This document shows positions 1 through 50,545 of a stretch of DNA of 64,000 bases, one piece after another (the stretch's first letter is position 1; each line of letters starts with the position of its first letter). The translations under genes and the position numbers were made by a program. Origin of the DNA: Mobula hypostoma (taxonomy: Eukaryota); contig NC_086107.1 of assembly GCF_963921235.1 (NCBI RefSeq), positions 96,226,001 to 96,290,000 of the forward strand, written 5' to 3'. The notes under the pieces were generated by a model, which was not told where the DNA came from, searched no databases, and was given only the letters and a program-made list of their open reading frames with translations.

Positions 1-2943
1 GCCGACGGCAGGCTGGACAGTACCTCCAGACTCCTGAGGGAAATAGTAAAGACGGCCAAGCTGCGCGACGCCTTTGGCACCCCCACAGGTGGAGCACAGC
101 CGCAAGCCACCTGGACACGGTCGGACGGCTCAGCCCGCTCCCGGATCGACTTCCTCTTCCTGTCAGAGCCCCTCACGGTCAGGTCCACCGACGTCACGCC
201 GGTGTTCTTCTCTGACCACTGCCTTCTGAGAGCCACCTGTCGCTTACGGGAGGACCAGAAGGCAGGCAGGGGGACGTGGAAGCTGAATGTTAAGCTGCTG
301 ACCCCAGAGAACATCGAGGAACTAGAGAGGGAGTACACAGGTTGGAGAACCTTGAAAGCCTTCTTTGATTCCCCGGTTCACTGGTGGGAAGCCACCAAAG
401 AGAACATTAAGAGGTTCTTCATCCGCAAGGGTATCCAGAAGGCAAGGCAGGAGCAGAGGGAACTGCGTAAACTCCAGACAGAGTTGCAGCAACTTCTCCT
501 TCTGCAGTCGAAGGGGGTGGATGTCAGGGAGGAATTGCGAGAGGTGAAGGGCCGGCAAGCCCATAACCTCGCCGCCGAATCCTCCAAGATCATCTTCCGA
601 TCAAGGGTCCAAACCGTGGAGCAGGACGAGACGTGCTCACGCTTCTTCTTCCAAAAGGTGCACAGGGGGAGCTCTGTGATCCACAACCTTAAGGAAGAGG
701 ACGGCTCAGTCGCGTCCTCGCAGACCGACATACTGAGGATCTGCAAGTCCTTCTATGCCGGTCTGTACGACGAAAAGGCCACAGAATCCACAGCCTCCCG
801 CAACTTCCTGTCGTCTATCACGCAGGTCTTAGACGGCGGCAAGCGGGAGAGTCTGGATCAGCCACTGACCCTGGACGAGCTGACAGGCTCCATCCGTTCC
901 TTTGGGTCGGGTAAGACTCCCGGAAGCGACGGCTTACCGGCTGAGTTGTACTCGGCTCTGTGGAACTGGATAGGCCCAGACCTGCTGGAAGTGTACAATG
1001 CTATGCTTCTGGCCGGCAGGATGTCTGAGTCCATGAGGAAGGGCATCATCACCCTCATCTACAAGCAGAAGGGGGAAAGAGAGGACATTAGAAATTGGAG
1101 ACCCATCTCTCTCCTGAATGTGGACTACAAGATCCTGTCCAAGGCTATCGCCAACAGGGTCAAGTCTGCTCTGGGACAGGTGATCCACCCAGACCAAACC
1201 TGTGCTGTACCAGGCAGGAAGATCTCAGACAGCCTCGCGCTGCTGAGGGACACCATCGCCTACGTGCAGGACAGGAGGGTGGACGCCTGCCTGGTCAGCT
1301 TGGACCAGGAGAGAGCCTTCGACAGGATATCGCACACGTACATGGCGGACGTGCTCTCCAAAATGGGATTTGGGGAGGGAATCCGGAATTGGATCAGACT
1401 GCTCTACACAGACATCCGTAGTGCAGTCCAGGTCAACGGGTGGGAAACAGACAGCTTCCCCATCAGGTCTGGAGTCAGGCAGGGCTGTCCCCTCTCCCCT
1501 GTCTTGTTTGTCTGCTGCATAGAACCCTTTGCGGAAGCCATTAGGAGGGATGAGGGCATAAGAGGGGTGACGCTGCCAGGCAGTGGAGGGACCCAAGTGA
1601 AAACCTCCCTGTACATGGACGACGTCACCGTCTTCTGCTCTGATCCGAGGTCAGTTCGCAGGTTGATTGGCACCTGCGAACAGTTCGAGCTAGCGTCGGG
1701 GGCCAGGGTCAACCGCACGAAGAGCGAAGCCATGCTCTTCGGCAACTGGCCCGACCGATCCAGCGTCCCCTTCAACATCAGGTCTGACCACGTGAAGGTG
1801 TTGGGGATATGGTTCGGAGGGGCGGAGGCGTGCAACAAGAACTGGCAGGAGCGGACTGCCAAGGTGAAACAGAAACTGGGACTGTGGGGAGGGCGCTCCC
1901 TGTCGATAACGGGCAAGAACCTGGTCATCAGGTGTGAGGTGCTCTCAGGGCTGCTGTACTTGGCGCAGGTCTGGCCCGTCCCCCGCTCCTACAGCTCGGA
2001 AATCACCCGGGCTGTCTTCAGATTCGTCTGGGGATCCAAGATGGAGCGGGTGGGACGGACCGCCATGCACAAGTCCCTGGACAACGGGGGCAAGAACGTC
2101 CCCAATGTCGCCCTCACCCTGATGGCCAGCTTCGTATGTGGCTGCATCAGGTTGTGTGTAGAGCCCAGGTATGTGGGCACCAAGTACCGCTACGTGCCCA
2201 GGTTCTACTTGTCGCCCTGGCTACGAAGGATGGGTCTGGCCCCACTCCCGCGCAACGCCCCAGTCAGCTGGTCGTTGCCGGCATACCTGTCCTACGTAGC
2301 AAAGTTCTTCCAGGAGAACGCCTTTGACCACAGGGCCATCAGGCAGTGGTCGGCACGTAGTGTCCTGCAGGCACTGCAGGAGAAGGACGTGATGGACACA
2401 GTGGGGTGGTTCCCGGAGCAGACTGTCCAGTTCATCTGGCAAAATGCCTCATCGCCAGATCTAACCAACAGGCACCAAGACCTCGCCTGGCTGGCGGTGA
2501 GAGGGGCCCTCCCAGTCAGAGCCCTCCTGTACGCCCGGAACGTCGTCTCCGCACCCCATTGCCCACGGGAGGACTGCAGTGAGGAGGAGTCTGTGACCCA
2601 CCTCTTTGCACACTGCCAGTTCGCAAAGAGGGTGTGGAGGAGGATGGATGGGCTAGTGTCACGGTTTATCCCCAGCAGCTGCGTAACAGAGGACTCTCTG
2701 ATCTACGGGCTGTTCCCGGGGACACACACGGAGACCAACGTCCGGTGCTGCTGGCAGATCATCAACTCGGTGAAAGATGCTATTTGGTCGGCCCGTAACT
2801 TGATGATCTACCAGCACATGGAGATGTCCGTGGGAGAATGCTGCCGACTGGCACATTCTCGACTGCAGGAGTACGTGCTGAGGGACGCACTGAAACTTGG
2901 TGCAGCCACCGCAAGGGCCCGGTGGGGAAGGACCACAGTATAG
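1..2943 (+). CDS. K1 ORF2 (partial): APE endonuclease C-terminus, reverse transcriptase and C-terminal zinc finger
   Basis: Open frame from base 1. Motifs SRIDF, SDH, PGSDG, WRPISLLNVDYKI, QGCPLSP, YMDD, CPREDC..H..HC. The motif DQEKAFD reads DQERAFD in this copy. Confidence 0.9.
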   Translation, partial: ADGRLDSTSRLLREIVKTAKLRDAFGTPTGGAQPQATWTRSDGSARSRIDFLFLSEPLTVRSTDVTPVFFSDHCLLRATCRLREDQKAGRGTWKLNVKLLTPENIEELEREYTGWRTLKAFFDSPVHWWEATKENIKRFFIRKGIQKARQEQRELRKLQTELQQLLLLQSKGVDVREELREVKGRQAHNLAAESSKIIFRSRVQTVEQDETCSRFFFQKVHRGSSVIHNLKEEDGSVASSQTDILRICKSFYAGLYDEKATESTASRNFLSSITQVLDGGKRESLDQPLTLDELTGSIRSFGSGKTPGSDGLPAELYSALWNWIGPDLLEVYNAMLLAGRMSESMRKGIITLIYKQKGEREDIRNWRPISLLNVDYKILSKAIANRVKSALGQVIHPDQTCAVPGRKISDSLALLRDTIAYVQDRRVDACLVSLDQERAFDRISHTYMADVLSKMGFGEGIRNWIRLLYTDIRSAVQVNGWETDSFPIRSGVRQGCPLSPVLFVCCIEPFAEAIRRDEGIRGVTLPGSGGTQVKTSLYMDDVTVFCSDPRSVRRLIGTCEQFELASGARVNRTKSEAMLFGNWPDRSSVPFNIRSDHVKVLGIWFGGAEACNKNWQERTAKVKQKLGLWGGRSLSITGKNLVIRCEVLSGLLYLAQVWPVPRSYSSEITRAVFRFVWGSKMERVGRTAMHKSLDNGGKNVPNVALTLMASFVCGCIRLCVEPRYVGTKYRYVPRFYLSPWLRRMGLAPLPRNAPVSWSLPAYLSYVAKFFQENAFDHRAIRQWSARSVLQALQEKDVMDTVGWFPEQTVQFIWQNASSPDLTNRHQDLAWLAVRGALPVRALLYARNVVSAPHCPREDCSEEESVTHLFAHCQFAKRVWRRMDGLVSRFIPSSCVTEDSLIYGLFPGTHTETNVRCCWQIINSVKDAIWSARNLMIYQHMEMSVGECCRLAHSRLQEYVLRDALKLGAATARARWGRTTV

Positions 2944-3135
2944 GTTTCTCCACCCGTGGGAGTGGGAGGGGTCGGAGGGCGGGGAGTATACCCCTCAACA
3001 ATGAAATGATGTGGTATAAATACGGATATGTACTGTGTATAATGCAAACGTATGTAAAGGATGAAAAGTTATTGAATGGTTTATTGTATATATTTATTTT
3101 TGAATAAAGTATATTTTGAAATAAAAAAAAAAAAA
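1..3135 (+). mobile_element. Tx1-clade (Keno-type, U2-targeting) non-LTR retrotransposon, copy K1; its 5' part lies outside the window
   Basis: Near-identical to 5132-8262 (offset 5131). Carries the end of the APE endonuclease plus RT ORF2, AATAAA and poly(A) ending at 3135, followed by the U2 target remnant TCTGTTC (3136-3142). Confidence 0.93.
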
Positions 3136-3222
3136 TCTGTTCGCGCTGACGCAGGGGTGGATCCTAATGCTGATTGGCCTCCAATCTAACACCCCATACC
3201 AGCGACGACAGCAGTGAGGAAG

Positions 3223-4650
3223 ATGGCAGCAGCGAGCAGTGCATCGGCTCGAGGCCAAGGTATCAAGAACACTGTCAGGCTGACAGTGCGAGACCGGAAC
3301 GGGGGCACCGGCTTCACCCGAGAGACCTTCATCCGGAAGGTCTTGATGGAATGCTGCGGATTTACGCCTGACGACATCTACTGCGTCCAGGACTTTGCAG
3401 GTTTTTTCGACGTGACTTTCCGGCAGGCTGCAGGGTGGCAGAAGCTGTACCAGCAGCTTCAGCTGAAGGGGACAGAGGCGCCGCTGTCGCTGTTGAAAGC
3501 ACAGGCCCTCTTTGCCACGGCTACCCAGCAGGAACGGACAATCACGGTGCACATGTTCAACCCGCACGTGCCATTGGTCGATGTCCTTACATTCCTCGCT
3601 CGGTATGTGGAGAGCGTAGGAACACCAGCAGACGTGAAGGACGGACTGGGAATCTGGACCAGCAAACGGCAGGTCAAGGTGAAGCTGAGGTTGGACTCCA
3701 ACGGCGGCGTCATCCACCCCCCCTCCGTCTTCGCCATCGGAGGGAACCGAGGGTACACGGTGTACGCGGGGCAACCCAGGGTGTGCCGAAACTGCGGCAA
3801 GGCAGGGCACATCGCAGCCCAGTGCAGGGTGGTGATGTGCAAGAACTGCAAAACTGAAGGCCACCTGACCAAAGACTGCACGCAGGCCAAGTCCTGCAAC
3901 CTTTGTGGACAAGACGGCCACCTGTACAGAGCCTGCCCGAGGCGTGGGGGCACCTACGCACAGGCAACCAGGGGAGGTGCTGGTCCTGAAAGGGCCCAGG
4001 CAGTTTCGGACGCCCCTGCCAGCACTGCCGAAGAGGCACCCGACAGGGCGGACGATGAGACCAGGGAGGAAGGGGCAAGCACCCCGAGACCTGCCACCCC
4101 ACTGCAGACCCTCCAGGACCAAGCAAATGACGAGCAGGAGTCCATGGAGGAAGGGACAGCTGAGGTGGAAACGGAATGGAAGGTCGTGAAACGGAAAAAG
4201 ACCCAAAAGGCGGCGGCCAAGCGACAGAAGGCGGAGCAACGCAAGAAAAGGGCAGGGAACCACACAGCCTCTGGTACCCTGTCCTCTTCAGAGGAGGAGG
4301 GAGTTGGGGGAGGCCAGCAGCCCCAGCGGAAGAAGCGGCTGGCAGAACAGGTGGAGAGGAGGAGAGAGGAGGGGGAAAGTCTGCTGGCCACCCCCCAAGT
4401 ACAGGAGGCGGAGAGCAGCAGACACACCGAGCTCCGGGAATCCGGGAGCAGAGCCACGGTTGGCACCCAGCAGCCGGAAGGGGAAGCAGCCCAGGAAGCC
4501 AACAACCCCCCGGGCCCAGAACCAGAACGGCCACACACGGAGGAGTACTACCAGCAGTACCTGAGCCCACAGGAGGTGGAAAACTTCACAAAGGCGGTGG
4601 GAATGAAGGCTCAGGATGGCAAGGATGAGGACGGAGTGCAGCCAAAATAA
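3223..4650 (+). CDS. K2 ORF1: gag-like nucleic-acid-binding protein with three CCHC zinc knuckles and a charged low-complexity tail
   Basis: CRNCGKAGHIAAQC, CKNCKTEGHLTKDC, CNLCGQDGHLYRAC. ATG at 3223; the ORF track opens at GTG 3214. Confidence 0.88.
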   Translation: MAAASSASARGQGIKNTVRLTVRDRNGGTGFTRETFIRKVLMECCGFTPDDIYCVQDFAGFFDVTFRQAAGWQKLYQQLQLKGTEAPLSLLKAQALFATATQQERTITVHMFNPHVPLVDVLTFLARYVESVGTPADVKDGLGIWTSKRQVKVKLRLDSNGGVIHPPSVFAIGGNRGYTVYAGQPRVCRNCGKAGHIAAQCRVVMCKNCKTEGHLTKDCTQAKSCNLCGQDGHLYRACPRRGGTYAQATRGGAGPERAQAVSDAPASTAEEAPDRADDETREEGASTPRPATPLQTLQDQANDEQESMEEGTAEVETEWKVVKRKKTQKAAAKRQKAEQRKKRAGNHTASGTLSSSEEEGVGGGQQPQRKKRLAEQVERRREEGESLLATPQVQEAESSRHTELRESGSRATVGTQQPEGEAAQEANNPPGPEPERPHTEEYYQQYLSPQEVENFTKAVGMKAQDGKDEDGVQPK

Positions 4651-4660
4651 GAGACCTACA

Positions 4661-7600
4661 ATGATGGCAGACCTTAAATTGGCGTGCTTGAATGTGCGAA
4701 GTTTGAAGAGTACTGGGCGATGCGTCAGCACGCTCCAGTACCTGGACACTGTAAAGACCGACGTGACCTTCCTCCAGGAGTGCGGACTACCACATCTCCG
4801 TAACTACCGGAGGTGGTCACGGTGGTGGAAAAAAGGTTTGTCTGTGTGGTCGGGGGGCAACGATTGTCGCGCTTCCGGCCTGGGGATTCTGCTACGGGGA
4901 GGTAACTTCTCAATCACCCAAGTTAAAGAGGTGGTTGCGGGGCGCCTCCTGGTAGCAGACGTCAAATACCGGGGCACTCCGCTCCGGCTGATCAACGTGT
5001 ACGCCTCCCCCGTTCGGAGCGAGCGGCTGGCCGTCTTCGAGCAGCTCCCACAGCTGCTGGTGACGTCCCAGCCGGTCGTTCTGGCCGGAGACTTCAACTG
5101 CACCATTGATGCGGCTGGAGGACCCGGCAGCGCCGACGGCAGGCTGGACAGTACCTCCAGACTCCTGAGGGAAATAGTAAAGACGGCCAAGCTGCGCGAC
5201 GCCTTTGGCACCCCCACAGGTGGAGCACAGCCGCAAGCCACCTGGACACGGTCGGACGGCTCAGCCCGCTCCCGGATCGACTTCCTCTTCCTGTCAGAGC
5301 CCCTCACGGTCAGGTCCACCGACGTCACGCCGGTGTTCTTCTCTGACCACTGCCTTCTGAGAGCCACCTGTCGCTTACGGGAGGACCAGAAGGCAGGCAG
5401 GGGGACGTGGAAGCTGAATGTTAAGCTGCTGACCCCAGAGAACATCGAGGAACTAGAGAGGGAGTACACAGGTTGGAGAACCTTGAAAGCCTTCTTTGAT
5501 TCCCCGGTTCACTGGTGGGAAGCCACCAAAGAGAACATTAAGAGGTTCTTCATCCGCAAGGGTATCCAGAAGGCAAGGCAGGAGCAGAGGGAACTGCGTA
5601 AACTCCAGACAGAGTTGCAGCAACTTCTCCTTCTGCAGTCGAAGGGGGTGGATGTCAGGGAGGAATTGCGAGAGGTGAAGGGCCGGCAAGCCCATAACCT
5701 CGCCGCCGAATCCTCCAAGATCATCTTCCGATCAAGGGTCCAAACCATGGAGCAGGACGAGACGTGCTCACGCTTCTTCTTCCAAAAGGTGCACAGGGGG
5801 AGCTCTGTGATCCACAACCTTAAGGAAGAGGACGGCTCAGTCGCGTCCTCGCAGACCGACATACTGAGGATCTGCAAGTCCTTCTACGCCGGTCTGTACG
5901 ACGAAAAGGCCACAGAATCCACAGCCTCCCGCAACTTCCTGTCGTCTATCACGCAGGTCTTAGACGGCGGCAAGCGGGAGAGTCTGGATCAGCCACTGAC
6001 CCTGGACGAGCTGACAGGCTCCATCCGTTCCTTTGGGTCGGGTAAGACTCCCGGAAGCGACGGCTTACCGGCTGAGTTGTACTCGGCTCTGTGGAACTGG
6101 ATAGGCCCAGACCTGCTGGAAGTGTACAATGCTATGCTTCTGGCCGGCAGGATGTCTGAGTCCATGAGGAAGGGCATCATCACCCTCATCTACAAGCAGA
6201 AGGGGGAAAGAGAGGACATTAGAAATTGGAGACCCATCTCTCTCCTGAATGTGGACTACAAGATCCTGTCCAAGGCTATCGCCAACAGGGTCAAGTCTGC
6301 TCTGGGACAGGTGATCCACCCAGACCAAACCTGTGCTGTACCAGGCAGGAAGATCTCAGACAGCCTCGCGCTGCTGAGGGACACCATCGCCTACGTGCAG
6401 GACAGGAGGGTGGACGCCTGCCTGGTCAGCTTGGACCAGGAGAAAGCCTTCGACAGGATATCGCACACGTACATGGCGGACGTGCTCTCCAAAATGGGAT
6501 TTGGGGAGGGAATCCGGAATTGGATCAGACTGCTCTACACAGACATCCGTAGTGCAGTCCAGGTCAATGGGTGGGAAACAGACAGCTTCCCCATCAGGTC
6601 TGGAGTCAGGCAGGGCTGTCCCCTCTCCCCTGTCTTGTTTGTCTGCTGCATAGAACCCTTTGCGGAAGCCATTAGGAGGGATGAGGGCATAAGAGGGGTG
6701 ACGCTGCCAGGCAGTGGAGGGACCCAAGTGAAAACCTCCCTGTACATGGACGACGTCACCGTCTTCTGCTCTGATCCGAGGTCAGTTCGCAGGTTGATTG
6801 GCACCTGCGAACAGTTCGAGCTAGCGTCGGGGGCCAGGGTCAACCGCACGAAGAGCGAAGCCATGCTCTTCGGCAACTGGCCCGACCGATCCAGCGTCCC
6901 CTTCAACATCAGGTCTGACCACGTGAAGGTGTTGGGGATATGGTTCGGAGGGGCGGAGGCGTGCAACAAGAACTGGCAGGAGCGGACTGCCAAGGTGAAA
7001 CAGAAACTGGGACTGTGGGGAGGGCGCTCCCTGTCGATAACGGGCAAGAACCTGGTCATCAGGTGTGAGGTGCTCTCAGGGCTGCTGTACTTGGCGCAGG
7101 TCTGGCCCGTCCCCCGCTCCTACAGCTCGGAAATCACCCGGGCTGTCTTCAGATTCGTCTGGGGATCCAAGATGGAGCGGGTGGGACGGACCGCCATGCA
7201 CAAGCCCCTGGACAACGGGGGCAAGAACGTCCCCAATGTCGCCCTCACCCTGATGGCCAGCTTCGTATGTGGCTGCATCAGGTTGTGTGTAGAGCCCAGG
7301 TATGTGGGCACCAAGTACCGCTACGTGCCCAGGTTCTACTTGTCGCCCTGGCTACGAAGGATGGGTCTGGCCCCACTCCCGCGCAACGCCCCAGTCAGCT
7401 GGTCGTTGCCGGCATACCTGTCCTACGTAGCAAAGTTCTTCCAGGAGAACGCCTTTGACCACAGGGCCATCAGGCAGTGGTCGGCACGTAGTGTCCTGCA
7501 GGCACTGCAGGAGAAGGACGTGATGGACACAGTGGGGTGGTTCCCGGAGCAGACTGTCCAGTTCATCTGGCAAAATGCCTCATCGCCAGATCTAACCAAC

Positions 7601-8074
7601 AGGCACCAAGACCTCGCCTGGCTGGCGGTGAGAGGGGCCCTCCCAGTCAGAGCCCTCCTGTACGCCCGGAACGTCGTCTCCGCACCCCACTGCCCACGGG
7701 AGGACTGCAGTGAGGAGGAGTCTGTGACCCACCTCTTTGCACACTGCCAGTTCGCAAAGAGGGTGTGGAGGAGGATGGATGGGCTAGTGTCACGGTTTAT
7801 CCCCAGCAGCTGCGTAACAGAGGACTCTCTGATCTACGGGCTGTTCCCGGGGACACACACGGAGACCAACGTCCGGTGCTGCTGGCAGATCATCAACTCG
7901 GTGAAAGATGCTATTTGGTCGGCCCGTAACTTGATGATCTACCAGCACATGGAGATGTCCGTGGGAGAATGCTGCCGACTGGCACATTCTCGACTGCAGG
8001 AGTACGTGCTGAGGGACGCACTGAAACTTGGTGCAGCCACCGCAAGGGCCCGGTGGGGAAGGACCACAGTATAG
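4661..8074 (+). CDS. K2 ORF2: APE endonuclease, reverse transcriptase and CCHC finger
   Basis: LNVRSL, LQE, NVYAS, GDFN, SRIDF, SDH (APE); DQEKAFD, QGCPLSP, YMDD (RT). ATGATG lies 10 nt after the ORF1 stop; the frame is open from 4616. Confidence 0.93.
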   Translation: MMADLKLACLNVRSLKSTGRCVSTLQYLDTVKTDVTFLQECGLPHLRNYRRWSRWWKKGLSVWSGGNDCRASGLGILLRGGNFSITQVKEVVAGRLLVADVKYRGTPLRLINVYASPVRSERLAVFEQLPQLLVTSQPVVLAGDFNCTIDAAGGPGSADGRLDSTSRLLREIVKTAKLRDAFGTPTGGAQPQATWTRSDGSARSRIDFLFLSEPLTVRSTDVTPVFFSDHCLLRATCRLREDQKAGRGTWKLNVKLLTPENIEELEREYTGWRTLKAFFDSPVHWWEATKENIKRFFIRKGIQKARQEQRELRKLQTELQQLLLLQSKGVDVREELREVKGRQAHNLAAESSKIIFRSRVQTMEQDETCSRFFFQKVHRGSSVIHNLKEEDGSVASSQTDILRICKSFYAGLYDEKATESTASRNFLSSITQVLDGGKRESLDQPLTLDELTGSIRSFGSGKTPGSDGLPAELYSALWNWIGPDLLEVYNAMLLAGRMSESMRKGIITLIYKQKGEREDIRNWRPISLLNVDYKILSKAIANRVKSALGQVIHPDQTCAVPGRKISDSLALLRDTIAYVQDRRVDACLVSLDQEKAFDRISHTYMADVLSKMGFGEGIRNWIRLLYTDIRSAVQVNGWETDSFPIRSGVRQGCPLSPVLFVCCIEPFAEAIRRDEGIRGVTLPGSGGTQVKTSLYMDDVTVFCSDPRSVRRLIGTCEQFELASGARVNRTKSEAMLFGNWPDRSSVPFNIRSDHVKVLGIWFGGAEACNKNWQERTAKVKQKLGLWGGRSLSITGKNLVIRCEVLSGLLYLAQVWPVPRSYSSEITRAVFRFVWGSKMERVGRTAMHKPLDNGGKNVPNVALTLMASFVCGCIRLCVEPRYVGTKYRYVPRFYLSPWLRRMGLAPLPRNAPVSWSLPAYLSYVAKFFQENAFDHRAIRQWSARSVLQALQEKDVMDTVGWFPEQTVQFIWQNASSPDLTNRHQDLAWLAVRGALPVRALLYARNVVSAPHCPREDCSEEESVTHLFAHCQFAKRVWRRMDGLVSRFIPSSCVTEDSLIYGLFPGTHTETNVRCCWQIINSVKDAIWSARNLMIYQHMEMSVGECCRLAHSRLQEYVLRDALKLGAATARARWGRTTV

Positions 8075-8262
8075 GTTTCTCCACCCGTGGGAGTGGGAGG
8101 GGTCGGAGGGCGGGGAGTATACCCCTCAACAATGAAATGATGTGGTATAAATACGGATATGTACTGTGTATAATGCAAACGTATGTAAAGGATGAAAAGT
8201 TATTGAATGGTTTATTGTATATATTTATTTTTGAATAAAGTATATTTTGAAATAAAAAAAAA

Positions 8263-8411: not shown

Positions 8412-8424
8412 CCCCTTCTGGGGA

Positions 8425-24664: not shown

Positions 24665-24669
24665 ACAGA

Positions 24670-34973: not shown

Positions 34974-34987
34974 CTGATAAGAACAGA

Positions 34988-40134: not shown

Positions 40135-40148
40135 CTGATAAGAACAGA

Positions 40149-43100
40149 TTTTTTAAAATTTCAAAATATACTTTATTCAAAAATAAATATATACCATAAA
40201 CCATTCAATAACTTTTCATCCTCTACATACGTTTCCATTATAGTCAATACATATCCGTATTTATAGCCACCCACGTGGCACTCCAGTAGTTCAGCTTACC
40301 ATATCATTGTTGAGGGGTATAGTCTCCGCCCTCCGACCCCTCCCACTCCCACGGGTGGAGAAACCTATACTGTAGTCCTTCCCCACCGGGCCCTTGCGGT
40401 GGCTGCACCGAGTTTCAGTGCGTCCCTCAGCACGTACTCCTGCAGCCGAGAATGTGCCAGTCGGCAGCATTCTCCCACGGACATCTCCATGTGCTGGTAG
40501 ATCATCAAGTTTCGGGCCGACCAAAGAGCGTCTTTCACCGAGTTAATGATCTGCCAGCAGCACTGGATGTTTGTCTCTGTGTGCGTCCCCGGGAACAGCC
40601 CGTAGATCAGAGAGTCCTCTGTTACACAGCTGCTGGGGATAAAACGTGATACTAGCCCGTCCATCCTCCTCCACACCCTCTTTGCGAACTGGCAGTGTGC
40701 AAAGAGGTGGGTCACAGACTCCTACTCACTGCAGTCCTCCCGTGGGCAGTGGGGTGCGGAGACGACGTTCTGGGCGTACAGGAGGGCTCTGAGTGGGAAG
40801 GCCCATCTCACTGCCAGCCAGGCGAGGTCTTGGTGCCTGTTGGTGAGATCTGGCGATGAGGCATTTTGCCAGATGAACTGGACAGTCTGCTCAGGAAACC
40901 ACCCCACTGCGTCCATCAGGTCCTTCTCCTGCAATGCCTGCAGGACATTAAGTGCCGACCACTGCCTGATTGCCCTGTGGTCAAAGGCGTTCTCCTGGAA
41001 GAACTTTGCTACGTAGGGCAGGTATGCCGGCAACGACCAGCTGACTGGGGTGTTGCACGGGAGGGGGGCCAGACCCATCCTTCGTAGCCAGGGCGACAGG
41101 TAGAACCTGGGCACATAGTGGTACTTGATGCCCACATACCTGGGTTCTCCACACAACCTGATGCAGCCACTTATGAAGCTGGCTATCAGGGTGAGGGCGA
41201 CATTGGGGACGTTCTTGCCCCCGTTGTCCAGGGACTTCTGCATGACGGTCCGTCTCACCCGCTCCATCTTGGATCTCCAGACGAATCTGAAGGGAGCCCC
41301 GGTGATTTCCGAGCTGTAGGAGCGGGGGACAGGCCAGACCTGCGCCAAGTACAGCAGCCCTGAGAGCACCTCACACCTGATGACCAGGTTCTTGCCCGTT
41401 ATTGACAGGGGGCGCCCTCCCCACAGTCCCAGTTTCTGTATTAACTTGGCAGTCCGTTACTGCCAGTTCTTGTTGATCGCCTCAGCCCCTCCGAACCAGA
41501 TCCCCAACACCTTCACGTGGTCAGACCTGATGGTGAAGGGGATGCTGGATCGGTTGGGCCAGTTGCCGAAGAGCATGGCTTCGCTCTTCGTGCAGTTGAC
41601 CCTGGCCCCCGACGCCAGTTTGAACTGTTCGCAGGTGCCAATCAACCTGCGAACTGACCTCGGATCAGAGCAGAAGACGGTGACGTCGTCCATGTACAGG
41701 GAGGTTTTCACTTGGGTCCCTCCACTGCCTGGCAGCATCACCCCTCTTATGCCCTCATCCCTCCTGGTGTTTTCCGCAAAGGGTTCGATGCAGCAGACAA
41801 ACAAGACAGGGGAGAGGGGACAGCCCTGCCTGACTCCCGACCTGATGGAGAAGCTGTCTGTTTCCCATCCATTGACCTGGACTGCACTACGGATGTCTGT
41901 GTAGAGCAGTCTAATCCAATTCTGGATTCCCTCCCCAAATCCCATTTTGGAAAGCACGTCCGCCATGTACGTGTGCGATATCCTGTCGAAGGCTTTCTCC
42001 TGGTCCAAGCTCACCAGGCAGGCATTCACCCCCCTGTCCTGCACGTAGGCGATGGTGTCCCTCAGCAGTGCGAGGCTGCCTGAGATCTTCCTGTCCGGTA
42101 CAGCACAGGTTTGGTCCGGGTGAATCACCTGTCCCAGAGCAGACTTGACCCTGTTGGCGATAGCCTTGGACAGGATCTTGTAGTCCAGATTCAGGAGAGA
42201 GATGGGTCTCCAATTTCTAATGTCCTCCCTTTCCCCCTTCTGCTTGTAGATGAGGGTGATGATGCCCTTCCTCATGGACTCTGACATACTGCCGGCCAGA
42301 AGCATAGCATTGTACACTTCCAGCAGGTCTGGGCCCATCCAGTTCCACAGAGCCGAGTACAACTCAGCCGGTAAGCCGTCGCTTCCGGGAGTCCTACCCG
42401 ACCCAAAGGAACGGATGGAGCCTGTCAGCTCGTCCAGGGTCAGTGGCTGATCCAGACTCTCCCGTTTGCCGTCATCTAAGACCTGCGTGATAGACGACAG
42501 GAAGTTGCGGGAGGCTGTGGATTCTGTGGCCTTTTCGTCGTACAGACCGGCATAGAAGGACCTGCAGATCCTCAGAATGTCGGTCTGCGAGGATGTGACT
42601 GAGCCATCCTCTTCCTTAAGGTTGTGGATCACAGAGCTCCCCCTGTGCACCTTTTGGAAGAAGAAGCGTGAGCACGTCTCGTCCTGCTCCACGATTTGGA
42701 CCCTTGATCGGAAGATGATCTTGGAGGATTCGGGGGGAGGTGCTGGGCTTGCCGGCCCTTCACCTCTTGCAATTCCTCCCTGACATCCACCCGCTCCGAC
42801 TGCAGAAGGAGAAGTTGCTGCAACTCTGTCTGTAGTTTACGCAGTTTCCTCTGCTCCTGCCTTGCTTTCCGGATACCCTTGCAGATGAAGAACCTCCTAA
42901 TGTTCTCCTTGGTGGCTTCCCACCAGTGAACCGGGGAATCAAAGAAGGCTTTCAAGGTTCTCCAACCTATGGACTCTCTCTCTGTTCCTCGATGTTCTCT
43001 GGTTTCAGCAGCTATACGTTCAGCTTCCAAGTCCCCCTGCCTGCCTTCTGGTCCTCCCATAAGTGACAGGTGGCTCTCAGAAGGCAGTGGTCAGAGAAGA

Positions 43101-45295
43101 ACACCGGCGTGACGTCGGTGGACCTGACCGTGAGGGACTCAAACAGGAAGAGGAAGTCGATCCGGGTGCGGGCTGAGCCGTCCGATCGTGTCCAGGTGGC
43201 TTGTGGCTGTGCTCCACCTGTTGGGGTGCCACAGGCGTCGCGCAGCTTGGCTGTCTTTACTATTTCCCTCAGGAGTCTGGAGGTACTGTCCAGCCTGCCG
43301 GGTCCTCCAGCCGCATCAATGGTGCAGTTGAAGTCTCCGGCCAGAACGACCGGCTGGAGCGTCACCAGCAGCAGTGGGAGCTGCTCAAAGACGGCCAGCC
43401 GCTCGCTCCACACGGGGGAGGCGTACACATTGACCAGCCGGAGCGGAGTGCCCCGGTATTTGACGTCTGCTACCAGGAGGCGCCCCGCAACCACCTCTTT
43501 AACTTGGGTGATTGAGAAGTTGCCTCCCCGCAGCAGAATCCCCAGCCGGAAGCGCGACAATCGTTGCCCCCCGACCACACCGACAAACCTTTTTTCCACC
43601 ACCGTGCCCACCTCCGGTAGTTACGGAGGTGTGGTAGTCTGCACTCCTGGAGGAAGGTCACGTCGGCTTTTACAGTGCCCAGGGACTGGAGCGTGCTGAC
43701 GCATCGCCTGGTACTCTTCAAACTTTGCACGTTGCAGCACGCCAATTTAAGGTCTGCCATCTTTGTAAGTCCTTTATTTCGGCTGCTCTCCGTCCTCTTC
43801 CTTCCAGTCCTGAGCCTTCCTTCCCACCGCCTTTGTGAAGTTTTCCACCTCCTGTGGGCTCAGGTACTGCTGGTAGTACTCCCCCGGGTGTGGCAGTTCT
43901 GGTTCTGACTTCCTGGGCTGCATCCACTTCAGGCTGCTGTATGCCAGCCGTGGCTCTGCTCCGGGATTCCTGGAGCTGTGTGTCTCTGCTGCTCTCCGCC
44001 TCCTGTACCTGGGGGGTGGCCAGCAGACTTTCTCCCCTCTCTCTCCTCCCCTCCGCCTGTTCTGGCAGCCGCTTCTTCCGCCGGGGCTGCTGGCCTCCCC
44101 CAACTCCTTCCTCCTCTGAAGAGGACAGGGTACCAGAGGCTGTGTGGTTCCCTGCCCTTTTCTTGTAATCCTCTGCCTTCTGTCACTTGGCCGCGGCCTT
44201 TTGGGTCTTTTTACGTTTCACGACCTTCCATTCAGTTTCCACCTCAGCTCTCCCCTCCTCCATGGACTCCTGCTTGTCGTTTGCCTGGTCCTGGGGGGTC
44301 TGCAGCGGGGTGGCAGGTCTTGGGGTGCTTGCACCTTCCTCCCTGGTTTCATCGTCCGTCCTGTCGGGTGCCTCGTCTGCAGCGCTGGCGGGTACGTCCG
44401 AAACTGCCTGGGCCCTTTCAGTGCCAGCACCTTCCCTGGTCGCCTGTGCGTAGGTGCCCCCATGCCTCGGGTAGTCTCTGTACAGGTTGCCAGCCTGTCC
44501 GCAAAGGTTGCAGGACTTGGCCTGCGTGCAGTCTTTGGTCAGGTGGCCTTCAGTTTTACAGTTCTTGCACATCAACACCCTGCAGTGGGCTGCGATGTGC
44601 CCTGCCTTGCCGCAGTTTCGGCACACCCTGGATTGCCCCGCGTACACCGTGTACCCTCGGTTCCCTCTGCTGGCGAAGACGGAGGGGGGCTGGATGACGC
44701 CGCCGTTGGAATCCAACCTCAGCTTCACCTTGACCTGCTGTTTGCTGGTCCAGATTCCCAGTCCGTCCTTCACGTCCGCTGGTGTTCCTACACTCTCCAC
44801 ATACCGAGCGAGGAATGGAAGGACGTCCACCACTGGCACGTACAGGTTGAACATCTGGAGCATGATTGTCCGTTCCTGCTGGGTTGCCGTTGTAAAGAGG
44901 GCCTGTGCTTTCAGCAGAGACAGCGGCGCCTCTGTCCCCTTCAGCTGAAGCTGCTGATACAGCTTCTGCCACCCTGCAGCCTGCCGGAAAGTGACATCGA
45001 AGAAACCTGCGAAATCCTGGACACAGTTGATGACGTTGGGCATAAATCCACAGCATTCCATCAAGACCTTCCGGATGACGGTCTCTCGGGTGATGCTGGT
45101 GCCCCCGTTCCGGTCTCGCACTGTCAGCCTGACAGTGTTCTTGATACCCGGGCCTCGAGCCGATGCACTGCTCGCTGCTGCCATCTTCTTCTTCCTCACT
45201 GCTGTCGTCGCTGGTATGGGGTGTTAGATTGGAGGCCAATCAGCATTAGCATCCACCCCTGCGTCAGCACGAACTCTTCTCCTCCGCCTTCTGGT
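40149..45295 (-). mobile_element. Keno-type Tx1 copy K6 (decayed)
   Basis: 5161-bp period. Stops at 40722, 41457 and 44183. Confidence 0.92.
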
Positions 45296-45309
45296 CTGAT
45301 AAGAACAGA

Positions 45310-48300
45310 TTTTTTAAAATTTCAAAATATACTTTATTCAAAAATAAATATATACCATAAACCATTCAATAACTTTTCATCCTCTACATACGTTTCCATT
45401 ATAGTCAATACATATCCGTATTTATAGCCACCCACGTGGCACTCCAGTAGTTCAGCTTACCATATCATTGTTGAGGGGTATAGTCTCCGCCCTCCGACCC
45501 CTCCCACTCCCACGGGTGGAGAAACCTATACTGTAGTCCTTCCCCACCGGGCCCTTGCGGTGGCTGCACCGAGTTTCAGTGCGTCCCTCAGCACGTACTC
45601 CTGCAGCCGAGAATGTGCCAGTCGGCAGCATTCTCCCACGGACATCTCCATGTGCTGGTAGATCATCAAGTTTCGGGCCGACCAAAGAGCGTCTTTCACC
45701 GAGTTAATGATCTGCCAGCAGCACCGGATGTTTGTCTCTGTGTGCGTCCCCGGGAACAGCCCGTAGATCAGAGAGTCCTCTGTTACACAGCTGCTGGGGA
45801 TAAAACGTGATACTAGCCCGTCCATCCTCCTCCACACCCTCTTTGCGAACTGGCAGTGTGCAAAGAGGTGGGTCACAGACTCCTACTCACTGCAGTCCTC
45901 CCGTGGGCAGTGGGGTGCGGAGACGACGTTCTGGGCGTACAGGAGGGCTCTGAGTGGGAAGGCCCATCTCACTGCCAGCCAGGCGAGGTCTTGGTGCCTG
46001 TTGGTGAGATCTGGCGATGAGGCATTTTGCCAGATGAACTGGACAGTCTGCTCAGGAAACCACCCCACTGCGTCCATCAGGTCCTTCTCCTGCAATGCCT
46101 GCAGGACATTAAGTGCCGACCACTGCCTGATTGCCCTGTGGTCAAAGGCGTTCTCCTGGAAGAACTTTGCTACGTAGGGCAGGTATGCCGGCAACGACCA
46201 GCTGACTGGGGTGTTGCACGGGAGTGGGGCCAGACCCATCCTTCGTAGCCAGGGCGACAGGTAGAACCTGGGCACATAGTGGTACTTGATGCCCACATAC
46301 CTGGGTTCTCCACACAACCTGATGCAGCCACTTATGAAGCTGGCTATCAGGGTGAGGGCGACATTGGGGACGTTCTTGCCCCCGTTGTCCAGGGACTTCT
46401 GCATGACGGTCCGTCTCACCCGCTCCATCTTGGATCTCCAGACGAATCTGAAGGGAGCCCCGGTGATTTCCGAGCTGTAGGAGCGGGGGACAGGCCAGAC
46501 CTGCGCCAAGTACAGCAGCCCTGAGAGCACCTCACACCTGATGACCAGGTTCTTGCCCGTTATTGACAGGGGGCGCCCTCCCCACAGTCCCAGTTTCTGT
46601 ATTAACTTGGCAGTCCGTTACTGCCAGTTCTTGTTGATCGCCTCAGCCCCTCCGAACCAGATCCCCAACACCTTCACGTGGTCAGACCTGATGGTGAAGG
46701 GGATGCTGGATCGGTTGGGCCAGTTGCCGAAGAGCATGGCTTCGCTCTTCGTGCAGTTGACCCTGGCCCCCGACGCCAGTTTGAACTGTTCGCAGGTGCC
46801 AATCAACCTGCGAACTGACCTCGGATCAGAGCAGAAGACGGTGACGTCGTCCATGTACAGGGAGGTTTTCACTTGGGTCCCTCCACTGCCTGGCAGCATC
46901 ACCCCTCTTATGCCCTCATCCCTCCTGGTGTTTTCCGCAAAGGGTTCGATGCAGCAGACAAACAAGACAGGGGAGAGGGGACAGCCCTGCCTGACTCCCG
47001 ACCTGATGGAGAAGCTGTCTGTTTCCCATCCATTGACCTGGACTGCACTACGGATGTCTGTGTAGAGCAGTCTAATCCAATTCTGGATTCCCTCCCCAAA
47101 TCCCATTTTGGAAAGCACGTCCGCCATGTACGTGTGCGATATCCTGTCGAAGGCTTTCTCCTGGTCCAAGCTCACCAGGCAGGCATTCACCCCCCTGTCC
47201 TGCACGTAGGCGATGGTGTCCCTCAGCAGTGCGAGGCTGCCTGAGATCTTCCTGTCCGGTACAGCACAGGTTTGGTCCGGGTGAATCACCTGTCCCAGAG
47301 CAGACTTGACCCTGTTGGCGATAGCCTTGGACAGGATCTTGTAGTCCAGATTCAGGAGAGAGATGGGTCTCCAATTTCTAATGTCCTCCCTTTCCCCCTT
47401 CTGCTTGTAGATGAGGGTGATGATGCCCTTCCTCATGGACTCTGACATACTGCCGGCCAGAAGCATAGCATTGTACACTTCCAGCAGGTCTGGGCCCATC
47501 CAGTTCCACAGAGCCGAGTACAACTCAGCCGGTAAGCCGTCGCTTCCGGGAGTCCTACCCGACCCAAAGGAACGGATGGAGCCTGTCAGCTCGTCCAGGG
47601 TCAGTGGCTGATCCAGACTCTCCCGCTTGCCGTCATCTAAGACCTGCGTGATAGACGACAGGAAGTTGCGGGAGGCTGTGGATTCTGTGGCCTTTTCGTC
47701 GTACAGACCGGCATAGAAGGATCTGCAGATCCTCAGAATGTCGGTCTGCGAGGATGTGACTGAGCCATCCTCTTCCTTAAGGTTGTGGATCACAGAGCTC
47801 CCCCTGTGCACTTTTTGGAAGAAGAAGCGTGAGCACGTCTCGTCCTGCTCCACGATTTGGACCCTTGATCGAAAGATGATCTTGGAGGATTCGGGGGGAG
47901 GTGCTGGGCTTGCCGGCCCTTCACCTCTCGCAATTCCTCCCTGACATCCACCCGCTTCGACTGCAGAAGGAGAAGTTGCTGCAACTCTGTCTGTAGTTTA
48001 CGCAGTTTCCTCTGCTCCTGCCTTGCTTTCCGGATACCCTTGCAGATGAAGAACCTCCTAATGTTCTCCTTGGTGGCTTCCCACCAGTGAACCGGGGAAT
48101 CAAAGAAGGCTTTCAAGGTTCTCCAACCTATGGACTCTCTCTCTGTTCCTCGATGTTCTCTGGGTTCAGCAGCTTTACGTTCAGCTTCCAAGTCCCCCTG
48201 CCTGCCTTCTGGTCCTCCCATAAGTGTTAGGTGGCTCTCAGAAGGCAGTGGTCAGAGAAGAACACCAGCGTGACGTCGGTGGACCTGACTGTGAGGGACT

Positions 48301-50493
48301 CAAACAGGAAGAGGAAGTCGATCCGGGTGCGGGCTGAGCCGTCCGATCGTGTCCAGGTGGCTTGTGGCTGTGCTCCACCTGTTGGGGTGCCACAGGCGTC
48401 GCGCAGCTTGGCTGTCTTTACAGTTTCCATCAGGAGTCTGGAGGTACTGTCCAGCCTGCCGTCGGCGCTGCCGGGTCCTCCAGCCGCATCAATGGTGCAG
48501 TTGAATTCTCCGGCCAGAACGACCGGCTGGAGCGTCACAAGCAGCTGTGGGAGCTGCTCGAAGACGACCAGCCGCTCGCTCCACACGGGGGAGGCGTACA
48601 CGTTGATCAGCCGGAGCGGAGTGCCCCGGTATTTGACGTCTGCTACCAGGAGGCGCCCCGCAACCACCTCTTTAACTTGGGTGATTGAGAAGTTGCCTCC
48701 CCGCCGCAGAATCCCCAGCCGGAAGCGCGAGAATCGTTGCCCCCCGACCACACCGACAAACCTCTTTTCCACCACCGTGACCACCTCCGGTAGTTACAGA
48801 GGTGTGGCAGTCTGCACTCCTGGAGGAAGGTCACGTCGGCTTTTACAGTGCCCAGGTACTGGAGCGTGCTGACGCATCGCCTGGTACTCTTCAAACTTTG
48901 CACGTTGAAGCACGCCAATTTAAGGTCTGCCGCTTTGTAAGTCCTTTATTTCGGCTGCTCTCCGTCCTCTTCCTTCCAGTCCTGAGCCTTCCTTCCCACC
49001 GCCTTTGTGAAGTTTTCCACCTCCTGTGGGCTCAGGTACTGCTGGTAGTACTCCCCCGGGTGTGGTAGATCTGGTTCTGGGCCCGGGGGTTTGTTGACTT
49101 CCTGGGCTGCTTCCCCTTCAGGCTGCTGGGTGCCGGCCGTGGCTCTGCTCCCAGATTCCCGGAGCTGTGTGTGTCTGCTGCTCTCCGCCTCCTGTACCTG
49201 GGGGGGTGGCCAGCAGACTTTCTCCCCTCTCTCTCCTCCCCTTCGCCTGTTCTGCCAGCCGCTTCTTCCGCCGGGGCTGCTGGCCTCCCCCAACTCCTTC
49301 CTCCTCTGAAGAGGACAGGGTACCAGAGGCTGTGTGGTTCCCTGCCCTTTTCTTGCGTTGCTCCGCCTTCTGTCGCTTGGCCGATGCCTTTTGGGTCTTT
49401 TTGCGTTTCACGACCTTCCATTCCATTTCCACCTCAGCTCTTCCCTGCTCCATGGACTCCTGCTCGCCGTTTGCCTGGTCCTGGAGGGTCTGCAGCGGGG
49501 TGGCAGGTCTTGGGGTGGTTGCACCTTCCTCCCTGGTTTCGTTATCCGTCCTGTCGGGTGCCTCGTCTGCAGCGCTGGCGGGTACATCCGAAACTGCCTG
49601 GGCCCTTTCAGTGCCAGCACCTCCCCTGGTCGCCTGTGCGTAGATGCCCCCACGCCTGGGGCAGGCTCTGTACAGGTGGCCAGCATGTCAGCAAAGGTTG
49701 CAGGCCTTGGCCTGCGTGCAGTCTTTGGTCAGGTGGCCTTCGGTTTTATAGTACTTGCACATCACCACCCTGCACTGGGCTGCGATGTGCCCTGCCTTGC
49801 CGTAGTTTCAGCACAGCCTGGGTTGCCCCGTGTACACCATGTACCCTTGGTTCCCTCCGATGGCGAAGACGGAGGGGGTGGTGGATGACGCCACCGTTGG
49901 ATTCCAACCTCAGCTTCACCTTGACCTGCCGTTTGATGGTCCAGATTCCCAGTCCGTCCTTCACGTCTGCTGGTGTTCCTACGCTCTCCACATACCGAGC
50001 GAATAATGTAAGGACATCTACCACTGGCATGTGCAGGTTGAACATGTGCACCGTGATTGTCCGTTCCTGCTGGGTAGCCGTGGCAAAGAGGGCCTGTGCT
50101 TTCAACAGCGACAGCGGCACCTCTGTCCCCTTCAGCTGAAGCTGCTGGTACAGCTTCTGCCACCCTGCAGCCTGCCGGAAGGTGACATCGAAGAAACCTG
50201 CGAAATCCTGGATGCAGTAGATGTCGTCAGGCGTAAATCCACAGCATTCCATCAAGGCCTTCCGGATGAAGGTCTCCCGGGTGAAGCCAGTGCCCCTGTT
50301 CTGGTCTCGCACTGTCAACCTGACAGTGTTCTTGATACCCGAGCCTCGAGCCTCGAGCCGATGCACTGCTCGCTGCTGCCATCTTCTTCTTCCTCACTGC
50401 TGTCGTCGCTGGTATGGGGTGTTAGATTGGAGGCCAATCAGCATTAGGATCCACCCGTGCGTCAGCGCAAACTCTTCTCCTCCGTCTTCCGGT
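45310..50493 (-). mobile_element. Keno-type Tx1 copy K7 (decayed; 5'-most copy, joined to the U2 5' end)
   Basis: Stops at 45883 and 46618. The 5' half is distinct, with its own lesions such as a 7-bp duplication at ~50341-50359. Confidence 0.92.
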
Positions 50494-50545
50494 CTGGTAA
50501 GAATAGAAACTACACTTGATCTGAGCCAAAAGGCCGAGAAGCGAT
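50494..50545 (-). ncRNA. RNU2: U2 snRNA gene 5' end (nt 1-52)
   Basis: The minus strand reads ATCGCTTCTCGGCCTTTTGGCTCAGATCAAGTGTAGTTTCTATTCTTACCAG, 48/52 identical to vertebrate U2 nt 1-52. Confidence 0.93.

Follow-up and report, generated by a model that had tools for sequence, protein, structure and literature searches.

The window, the 64,000-nt stretch of DNA analysed here, contains two convergent U2 snRNA genes, both of which are occupied by copies of a two-ORF, poly(A)-tailed LINE of about 5.1 kb, here called K. Very probably, K is an element of the Keno kind that inserted in sense orientation into U2 after the GUAGUA sequence, and the larger of its two arrays was then enlarged by unequal crossing-over.

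Anatomy of the two U2 loci

A blastn search with the intact copy P2 as query identified seven K copies in the window, which represent only two loci: P1 and P2 on the plus strand, and M1 to M5 on the minus strand (24670-50468, 92.8-93.5% identical to P2). Their arrangement is as follows:

1..3135, plus strand: K copy P1, 5' part cut by the window start; tail of 13 A; ORF2 open over all 980 visible codons
3136..3142, plus strand: P1/P2 spacer, U2 nt 39-45 (TCTGTTC), a target-site duplication
3143..8262, plus strand: K copy P2, intact; 5' UTR of about 80 nt; 3' UTR tail of 9 A
8263..8415, plus strand: 3' part of the plus-strand U2 gene, nt 39 to end, then about 58 nt of conserved 3' flank
10474..10616, minus strand: true 3' remainder of the minus-strand U2 gene, nt 48 to 3' end (Rfam match)
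10617..10631, plus strand: left copy of the 15-bp target-site duplication AAGAACAGATTTTTT; in minus-strand reading, A6 and U2 nt 39-47
10632..24660, plus strand: later insertion block of 14,029 bp, unrelated LINEs outside K
24661..24675, plus strand: right copy of the 15-bp duplication, end of the M1 tail and U2 nt 39-47
24670..29827, minus strand: K copy M1, dead, 3'-most unit, with the 14-nt U2 39-52 spacer at its 5' end
29828..34987, minus strand: K copy M2, dead, chimera; 5' part M1-like, 3' part M5-like
34988..40148, minus strand: K copy M3, dead, chimera; switch at unit positions 2845-3358 (window ~37304-36791)
40149..45309, minus strand: K copy M4, dead; 5' part that of M3, 3' part 0.11% from M5
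45310..50493, minus strand: K copy M5, dead, 5'-most unit, with extra frameshifts of its own
50494..50508, minus strand: 5' junction TTCTATTCTTACCAG, a mutated form of U2 nt 38-52; 14-bp target duplication, upstream copy
50509..50545, minus strand: U2 nt 1-37, 5' half of the minus-strand gene, ending in GTAGT of the branch-point recognition sequence

All seven copies lie in sense orientation and end in poly(A) followed by U2 from nt 39, and U2 from nt 39 onward is likewise found downstream of both arrays. The first-pass annotation had described seven APE-type copies of about 5.1 kb with such ends, which blastn, motif counting and Pfam confirmed; its seven TCTGTTC start positions were exact, and an eighth, at 10625-10631 on the minus strand, had been missed. 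The A6-TCTGTTC motif occurs eight times in the window without mismatch (plus strand, 3130 and 8257; minus strand, 10619, 24663, 29821, 34981, 40142 and 45303), each time as a 3' junction of K or of K-derived sequence; 0.15 occurrences are expected in shuffled sequence, and eight or more were reached in 0 of 100 shuffles. Rfam matches to U2 were obtained at 8223-8415 (plus), 10474-10646 (minus) and 50414-50545 (minus).

The U2 sequence that had been noted after each copy does start at nt 39, but it mostly consists of short pieces, with the rest of the minus-strand gene at 10474-10631. Only 7 nt (nt 39-45) follow the tail at 3136, only 9 nt (nt 39-47) the tail at 24669, and only 14 nt (nt 39-52) the tails at 29827, 34987, 40148 and 45309. 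Five of the seven "U2" flanks are thus just 7- or 14-nt target-site duplications between copies, and such a duplication is kept at every inter-copy junction, U2 39-45 between P1 and P2 and U2 39-52 at all four internal M junctions. In the P1/P2 spacer, the letters GTTC may stem either from U2 or, by microhomology, from the 5' end of the element.

It had also been proposed that two U2 genes on opposite strands are each broken at nt 38/39. U2 is indeed present at both arrays, but the 3' junction may equally be placed at 37/38, because A38 is indistinguishable from the poly(A) tail. The break is seen from both sides in the minus-strand gene, but from one side only in the plus-strand gene, because the 5' half of the latter lies outside the window.

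The 14-kb block beside the minus-strand array

The M array is parted from the 3' part of its U2 gene (10474-10631) by a block that arrived later and is flanked by the 15-bp duplication. Its content comprises:

10783-11682, plus strand: L1-type ORF1 (Transposase_22)
12747-15143, minus strand: RT element
15581-18883, plus strand: APE-RT ORF2
~20605-23939, plus strand: second ORF2, 66% identical to the APE-RT ORF2

The U2 piece at 10474-10646 was also considered as a third U2 gene carrying a different element. This reading was rejected because a 15-bp direct repeat (M1 tail and U2 39-47) brackets the block, and because the adjoining end of the block consists of the 5' UTR and ORF1 of a plus-strand L1-like element.

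Coding content and kinship of K

The intact copy P2 has two ORFs:

3223-4650, plus strand: P2 ORF1, 475 aa; RBD_ZCCHC3_1st, RBD_ZCCHC3_2nd and zf-CCHC knuckles (Pfam)
4616-8074, plus strand: P2 ORF2, 1152 aa; APE-RT-zinc finger

In ORF2, Pfam recognizes Exo_endo_phos (aa 40-245, 4.6e-14), RVT_1 (aa 535-776, 2.1e-38) and zf-RVT (5.6e-10); the RT contains YMDD, and the stretch encoding the APE domain is free of stops and frameshifts. On inspection by eye, CCAAT/ATTGG and TGACGCA motifs are present in the 5' UTR of about 80-110 nt. For ORF1, a Mobula protein shows 92% identity, and K probably comes from a mobulid-like ray; relatives of ORF1 are annotated as the host protein 'ZCCHC3-like' in public ray genomes; these are probably mis-annotated LINE ORF1s. 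Pfam gave no match to Transposase_22, the L1-type ORF1 domain, in K ORF1, and the only such match in the window is the one at 10783-11682. Pfam likewise found no restriction-like endonuclease in K, where zf-RVT is the only domain C-terminal to the RT.

These features bear on whether K could belong to Utopia, the U2-targeting LINEs with a restriction-like endonuclease described in the accessible part of PMC4640811. Both share the insertion point, with downstream U2 starting at nt 39, and both have variable 5' junctions. However, Utopia has a single ORF with a restriction-like endonuclease, whereas K has an N-terminal APE and two ORFs, so that membership in Utopia has next to no probability.

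To place K by its ORF2, a metagenome scan was performed with A6 plus U2 nt 39-71 as query, which returned 25 loci with this junction. K-ORF2-like coding sequence is present at 21 of the 25, the distant relatives sharing 28-37% of their amino acids with K, and the U2 5' end also lies upstream at 11 of the 25. In a careful tree of 29 rows, K falls into a clade of 12 rows with 100/100 support that includes L018, L001 and L016, three U2-flanked APE LINEs picked out by the poly(A)-U2(39) junction alone; the target is known for 4 of the 12 rows. The L1-like LINEs of the window itself fall outside this clade, and a quick 44-row tree agrees. The best match to the K ORF2 in the protein database reaches 46% identity, and among K relatives from the protein search, the ESM Atlas and cluster names no Tx1 or Keno label occurs, only 'reverse transcriptase' or 'hypothetical'.

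Since its ORF2 groups with three unrelated elements at the poly(A)-U2(39) junction, K appears to be a U2-specific LINE of the Keno kind, a likeness drawn from insertion site, domains and U2-inserted relatives in trees that were built without named Tx1, Keno, Kibi, Koshi, Dewa or Mutsu sequences. The first-pass label 'Keno-type' is upheld to this extent, by the APE-RT-zinc finger order, the U2 site of Keno and the clade shared with independently found U2-junction elements. Judged from sequence, the insertion specificity of K in its host genome would rest on two independent loci together with relatives in other organisms.

Independence of the two loci and proposed insertion mechanism

The copies P1 and P2 form a young pair that is open over the parts visible in the window; they are 99.8% identical over 3131 nt, and P1 has no stops or frameshifts. 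At 169 sites all M copies differ from P, and these differences are biased towards the third codon position (first/second/third positions, 8/13/33 in ORF1 and 25/24/51 in ORF2), which indicates that P and M diverged as functioning elements. The 5' junctions also differ, with a 7-nt spacer at P versus a 14-nt spacer plus 24 further nt at M. Based on the codon bias and on these junctions, the two loci appear to be independent insertions.

It is highly improbable that K lacks target specificity and that an inverted segmental duplication carried a single chance insertion beside U2, flanks included, to a second place. Such an event would fit the U2 3' parts of the two loci, which are convergent and, including 58 nt of flank, 96% identical. 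However, the similarity between the loci stops 58 nt beyond U2, and both the third-position bias and the differing 5' junctions speak against a common copy. A chance insertion is further contradicted by the distant relatives at the same U2 base in 21 of the 25 independently found loci.

For targeted insertion, the following steps are probable. K inserts in sense orientation directly after the GUAGUA branch-point recognition sequence. Its endonuclease would nick the antisense strand opposite U2 nt 38/39, and the poly(A) RNA would be reverse-transcribed from this nick by target-primed reverse transcription. The sense strand would then be cut behind nt 45 or nt 52, 7 to 14 nt farther downstream, and the staggered cut would leave U2 nt 39-45 or 39-52 duplicated on both sides of the element.

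History of the M array

All five M copies share three 1-bp deletions causing frameshifts, at P2 coordinates 4879, 5454 and 5702. M1 to M4 additionally share a 17-bp and a 12-bp deletion, both of which are lacking in M5, and M2 to M5 share an identical tail, TTTT followed by A6. The remaining differences are segregated by position. Sites at which only M5 is odd all lie at or below unit position 2845 (131 of 131), and 87 of the 90 sites at which only M1 is odd lie at or above 2802. In the 5' part, M1 to M4 differ by 0-0.6% and M5 by 4.8%, with no difference between M3 and M4; over the 3' part, the difference between M4 and M5 is 0.11%, and that of M1 is 5.5-6%. The inner copies M2, M3 and M4 are recombinant chimeras of the outer copies M1 and M5, and the combination of an M1-like 5' part with an M5-like 3' part is the signature of unequal crossing-over. 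Because the frameshifts are common to all five copies and the inner three are chimeric, at least three of the five were made by unequal DNA exchange, M4 probably being the most recent product. The larger pile has thus grown mainly via DNA recombination rather than by repeated jumping.

If the copies had been stacked, their age should change steadily from one end of the M array to the other; these site patterns rule this out. Differences found only in M1, or only in M5, fall about equally on the three codon positions (16/12/15, 18/13/16, 9/11/16 and 19/9/14), which points to neutral decay in place. The divergence between M1 and M5 is uneven, about 7.7% in the first 1200 nt and about 2.4% at 1200-2800; the history, and with it the way in which the common frameshifts spread, may therefore have been obscured by earlier conversion events.

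In the first-pass annotation, the family was taken to build its arrays from stacked elements. As a general account of the arrays, repeated retrotransposition, in which every new copy would land in the piece of U2 target that the preceding insertion kept at its edge, has a low though appreciable probability. It is in line with the retention of U2 39-45 or 39-52 between all copies, as a double insertion leaves, with P1 and P2 being intact where visible and having tails of different length (13 versus 9 A), and with the accepted origin of R1 dimers as double insertions in the accessible text of PMC5932611. For the five-copy array this claim fails. The three frameshifts common to all M copies and the identical tail of M2 to M5 argue against it, and for M2 to M4 it is refuted by their position-segregated M1/M5 chimerism. 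Neither order of stacking, with the newest copy 5' or 3', fits, because M5 and M1 lack different common features: M5 the deletions of M1 to M4, and M1 the tail form of M2 to M5 and 87 variants of the 3' part. For the founding M5/M1 dimer and for P1/P2, double insertion, exchange between duplicated targets and mobilisation of a dead copy by the proteins of another copy all give the same architecture.

An assembly artefact, such as long reads wrongly joined over one or two genuine copies, is a very unlikely source of the tandem arrangement. Neighbouring units are partly identical, as in the 5' parts of M3 and M4, but the units differ by 0.6-4.7% in an order that follows their position, and the array is anchored at both ends by the unique 14-kb insertion and by unique flanks. 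Among 20 rows of sequencing runs that contain part of P2, the share of sampled words found was 0.74-0.88 for organism A, 0.42-0.51 for organism B and 0.32-0.34 for organism C. The DNA runs of one organism contain 0.74-0.77 of the P2 words, a further point against an artefact, although these runs may be the source sample itself. No RNA run was among the listed runs containing P2 words.

For growth by unequal crossing-over, we infer both the order of events and the origin of the first dimers. An old insertion of a subfamily diverged by 6% would have died and become the dimer of M5 and M1. After about 4.7% of neutral decay, this dimer would have been raised to five copies in two or more rounds of unequal crossing-over, each between copies paired out of register. 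The block of unrelated LINEs would have been inserted last, at the junction of the M1 tail and U2, duplicating 15 bp.

Comparison with known site-specific elements

The original description of Keno is reportedly that of Kojima & Fujiwara in 2004. In the accessible parts of PMC4640811, PMC4494074 and PMC6136364, Keno elements are APE-type LINEs of the Tx1 clade that insert specifically into U2 snRNA genes (KenoDr1, KenoFr1, Keno-1_SSa, Tx1-5_BF and Tx1-1_HM) with frogs, fish, lancelet and hydra as hosts; arrays of Keno are not described in those parts. The 3' target of Keno is given as TCTGTTCTTATCAGTTTAAT in the available text of PMC6136364, and according to that of PMC4640811 the downstream U2 starts at nt 39, identically for Keno and Utopia. 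The first-pass statement that K occupies this very position in U2 is consistent with both sources. K resembles Keno in its APE and RT, its sense orientation in U2, its poly(A) abutting TCTGTTCTTATCAG (U2 nt 39 onward), its animal host and the destruction of the target gene by the insertion, but differs in that its host is apparently a batoid ray.

Tandem arrangements have been described for other elements. In the accessible portion of PMC4640811, Utopia-1_NVit is 'occasionally inserted in tandem in U2 genes'. The crocodilian elements SINEU-3 and Tx1-Mar form tandem insertions 'sandwiching a TSD' (PMC4494074, as far as its accessible text goes) and share with K tandem copies with a target duplication between them and, presumably, the Tx1-clade machinery; in contrast to K, their target is a Mariner transposon, and the tandems were read as sequential insertions.

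For the R1 tandem array of Drosophila melanogaster, the available text of PMC5932611 proposes double insertion followed by unequal exchange. Judged against that text, both R1 and K are site-specific LINEs that form head-to-tail arrays in a multicopy RNA gene and retain a target-site duplication between copies, and the M array resembles the R1 array in its expansion by unequal exchange, that is, out-of-register recombination, with chimeras in M2 to M4. R1 differs in its 28S rDNA target with a 33-nt duplication, as against U2 with 7 or 14 nt, and in an array size of hundreds of kb, as against five copies here; in K, the chimeric units show the products of exchange directly. The architecture of the K array follows the Drosophila R1 model, with a dimer that retains the target duplication and subsequent unequal exchange.

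Concluding remarks

The window presents two stages side by side, a young, coding-competent pair and an old, dead array, and in the latter the growth by unequal crossing-over is readable base by base. The Keno kind is thereby extended to what appears to be a cartilaginous fish. Repeated targeted insertion is not shown by array architecture alone.

U2 genes are few, and the accessible part of PMC4640811 raises the question of how a parasite can persist when it kills its own target. As a tentative explanation, which we regard as possible rather than probable, Keno-type LINEs might persist by way of a few 'sacrificed' U2 genes, in which recombination-driven arrays hold most copies, including intact sources such as P1 and P2. 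On this view, recombination between the duplicated 7-14-nt target copies might also give rise to the founding dimer, or might remove the element and leave a repaired gene. The copy number of the family would then be set mainly by unequal exchange rather than by fresh insertion, which would leave other U2 genes untouched.

K Copies and the Two Interrupted U2 snRNA Genes

The window contains the motif A6-TCTGTTC eight times, whereas chance predicts 0.15 occurrences and none of 100 shuffles reached eight. Seven of the eight lie where the first-pass annotation had placed TCTGTTC behind copies of K, a ~5.1-kb two-ORF LINE; the eighth (10619-10631, minus strand) was absent from its list. A blastn search within the window, using one copy as query, retrieved seven copies of the 5.1-kb unit and no further K fragments. 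The plus-strand copies P1 and P2 are 99.8% identical, and the minus-strand copies M1 (3'-most) to M5 (5'-most) share 95.3-99.4% identity with each other and about 94% with P2. The annotation had also proposed two U2 genes, each interrupted, and this holds, as the 3' part of the minus-strand gene was recovered at 10631-10474. The 3' parts of the two genes, together with 58 nt of flank, share 96% identity, beyond which they diverge.

K copies and U2 snRNA pieces in the window
1-3131, plus strand: K copy P1, 5' part cut by the window start (blastn)
3143-8262, plus strand: K copy P2 (blastn)
Between 24670 and 50468, minus strand: K copies M1-M5 (blastn)
8223-8415, plus strand: U2 match (Rfam)
10474-10646, minus strand: U2 match (Rfam)
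50414-50545, minus strand: U2 match (Rfam)
50545-50509, minus strand: U2 nt 1-37 (read directly)
8263-8415, plus strand: U2 nt 39 to end (read directly)
10631-10474, minus strand: U2 nt 39 to end (read directly)

All seven K copies end in a short A tail (13 nt in P1, 9 in P2, 6 in M1; TTTT and then six A in M2-M5), which is followed by U2 starting at nt 39. Since A38 of U2 is indistinguishable from the K tail, the 3' break lies at 37/38 or 38/39. P1 and P2 are separated by TCTGTTC (U2 nt 39-45) only, and the four internal M junctions by TCTGTTCTTATCAG (nt 39-52) only, directly followed by 24 nt of an M-type 5' leader absent from P2. The minus-strand array is preceded at its 5' edge by U2 nt 1-37 and a mutated copy of nt 38-52, which adjoins M5; together with the nt 39-52 spacers, this indicates that the target duplication in the M lineage comprises U2 nt 39-52. 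Insertion of P2 duplicated nt 39-45, with GTTC assignable to either partner (microhomology).

A Probable Later Insertion in the Minus-Strand Gene

Downstream of the M1 tail, TCTGTTCTT alone is present, followed by unrelated AT-rich DNA. An identical 15-bp sequence (AAGAACAGATTTTTT on the plus strand, corresponding to A6 and U2 nt 39-47 on the minus strand) is found at 10617-10631 and 24661-24675, and the 14,029 bp in between (10632-24660) consist of unrelated LINE pieces. The block end adjoining U2 is a plus-strand 5' UTR with ORF1. We interpret the block as LINE sequence that arrived later, by a non-specific insertion that duplicated 15 bp of target and parted the M1 junction from the remainder of the gene. 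The presence of two ORF2s within one duplication may reflect nested or adjacent insertions. Elsewhere in the window, an ORF at 53884-55395 probably represents part of an LTR-retrotransposon gag-pol, and an L1-like LINE adjoins it.

Other coding features in the window
10783-11682, plus strand: L1-type ORF1, in the 14-kb block
12747-15143, minus strand: distant RT, in the 14-kb block
15581-18883, plus strand: APE-RT ORF2, in the 14-kb block
About 20605-23939, plus strand: second APE-RT ORF2, in the 14-kb block, 66% identical to the first
53884-55395, plus strand: ORF with SCAN-like, CCHC and integrase zinc-binding matches
55965-59761, minus strand: L1-like LINE (RT ORF 56136-58391, ORF1-like piece 58994-59761)

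Coding Capacity of K

P2 is intact; its ORF2 contains the YMDD motif and an APE-domain stretch free of stops and frameshifts, and the 980 visible ORF2 codons of P1 are all open. M1-M5 are all dead: reading through the APE part of ORF2 requires three or more frame changes in each, and stop codons are present as well. By eye, TGACGCA, ATTGGCC and CCAAT are seen in the first ~60 nt of the K 5' UTR (3143-3222; 50380-50470, minus strand), which may represent an internal promoter.

Open reading frames of P2
3223-4650, plus strand: ORF1, 475 aa, two ZCCHC3-type RNA-binding domains and CCHC knuckles
4616-8074, plus strand: ORF2, 1152 aa, APE-type endonuclease, reverse transcriptase and zf-RVT finger

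The best database match to ORF1 comes from Mobula (92% over 77% of the query) and the next ones from other rays and sharks, which makes a batoid ray the probable host. The close ORF1 relatives P0085, P0087 and P0088 are labelled 'zinc finger CCHC domain-containing protein 3-like' or 'uncharacterized protein' in public ray genomes, but look like LINE ORF1s rather than host genes. For ORF2, the nearest database relatives are amphibian proteins (46% identity). Their P0003 cluster (90% identity grouping) from Pleurodeles waltl has locus tags that follow one another closely on one contig (007924, 007931, 007938, 007944, 007947, 007951, 007953) and 005298-005304 on another, which hints at tandem clusters there as well.

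Relation to Keno and Other snRNA-Inserted Elements

In the available text of PMC4640811, PMC4494074 and PMC6136364, Keno is described as a U2-specific APE-type LINE of the Tx1 clade with the 3' target TCTGTTCTTATCAGTTTAAT, while Utopia employs a restriction-like endonuclease at the same insertion point, with downstream U2 from nt 39. K matches this published description of Keno in its APE endonuclease, sense orientation and nt 39 junction, in agreement with the earlier assignment as a Keno-type element in U2.

As an operational reference set, metagenome contigs were scanned for A6 followed by U2 nt 39-71, yielding 25 loci. K-ORF2-like coding sequence is present in 21, with HSP identities of 22-44% (28-37% where the match is nearly full-length); in the remaining four, upstream sequence is scarce or absent, or no match was obtained. 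Ten loci encode an intact ORF2 (1124-1222 aa), and in 11 the U2 5' end is also found upstream. A careful maximum-likelihood analysis (LG+G4, 29 rows) places K in a 12-row clade with 100/100 support, together with the U2-flanked loci L018, L001 and L016. Five U2-flanked loci form a second clade nearby, and the window's own L1-like LINEs lie in the outgroup. A quick 44-row tree agrees.

In nine of the 11 two-junction loci (L001, L005, L007, L009, L011, L014, L016, L017, L025), U2 nt 1 to ~22-29 precede the element, and nt ~27-38 are deleted; L001 contains the identical 5' junction twice, at 74 and 8698. Such uniform 5' junctions could derive from a heritable U2 leader, through transcription from the U2 promoter and annealing of the cDNA end to the target, a mechanism previously suggested for R2. 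Upstream U2 ends at nt 38 in L008 and at nt 51 in L018, the latter resembling K.

A second K-like LINE resides in a U1 snRNA gene (L022:7345-13509), on a contig that also bears a U2-inserted element. Its ORF2 pieces are 29-45% identical to K, its 5' end adjoins U1 nt 1-12 (ATACTTACCTGA), and its 3' end shows A6 and then CTTACCTGACGCGGG..., which is U1 by Rfam (75 bits). These junctions imply, for this single copy, that insertion took place behind U1 nt 3 and duplicated 9 bp, within the 5'-splice-site recognition sequence. For U1, the available text of PMC4640811 (2015) names a DNA transposon, Dada-U1, only.

Growth of the Minus-Strand Array

At 169 sites, all M copies differ from P2, with counts over codon positions of 8/13/33 in ORF1 and 25/24/51 in ORF2. 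This third-position bias indicates that P and M were still functional while they diverged and that they inserted separately. Differences found solely in M1 or solely in M5 are even over codon positions, which indicates neutral decay.

Single-base deletions at P2 coordinates 4879, 5454 and 5702 are common to the M copies (5/5), and M1-M4 additionally share a 17-bp and a 12-bp deletion. Sites at which M5 alone is odd all lie at unit position <=2845 (131/131), and those at which M1 alone is odd lie almost entirely at >=2802 (87/90). Within the 5' part, divergence is 0-0.6% among M1-M4 and 4.8% for M5; in the 3' part, the distance from M5 is 0.11% for M4, 1.1-1.6% for M2 and M3, and 5.5-6% for M1. 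Judged by these site patterns, the inner M units are chimeras, with a 5' part of the downstream-neighbour type and a 3' part of the upstream type. Out-of-register crossing-over in an M5-M1 dimer would generate chimeric inner units exactly as seen, and M4, with a 5' part identical to M3 and a 3' part 0.11% from M5, would reflect a second, very recent exchange. Stacked insertion was considered as the source of this array, but neither order accounts for the frameshift, deletion and site patterns. Thus, the first-pass annotation identified the element type and the target correctly, but the M chimeras contradict its building mode for the larger array.

The founding M5/M1 dimer and the P1/P2 pair possibly originated from double insertion, from exchange between duplicated target copies, or from mobilisation of a dead copy by the proteins of another. 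The M1-M5 divergence is uneven along the element, which hints at older conversion events. For the R1 array of Drosophila, the available text of PMC5932611 models a dimer that keeps the target duplication and subsequently undergoes unequal exchange, and the architecture of the M array matches this model.
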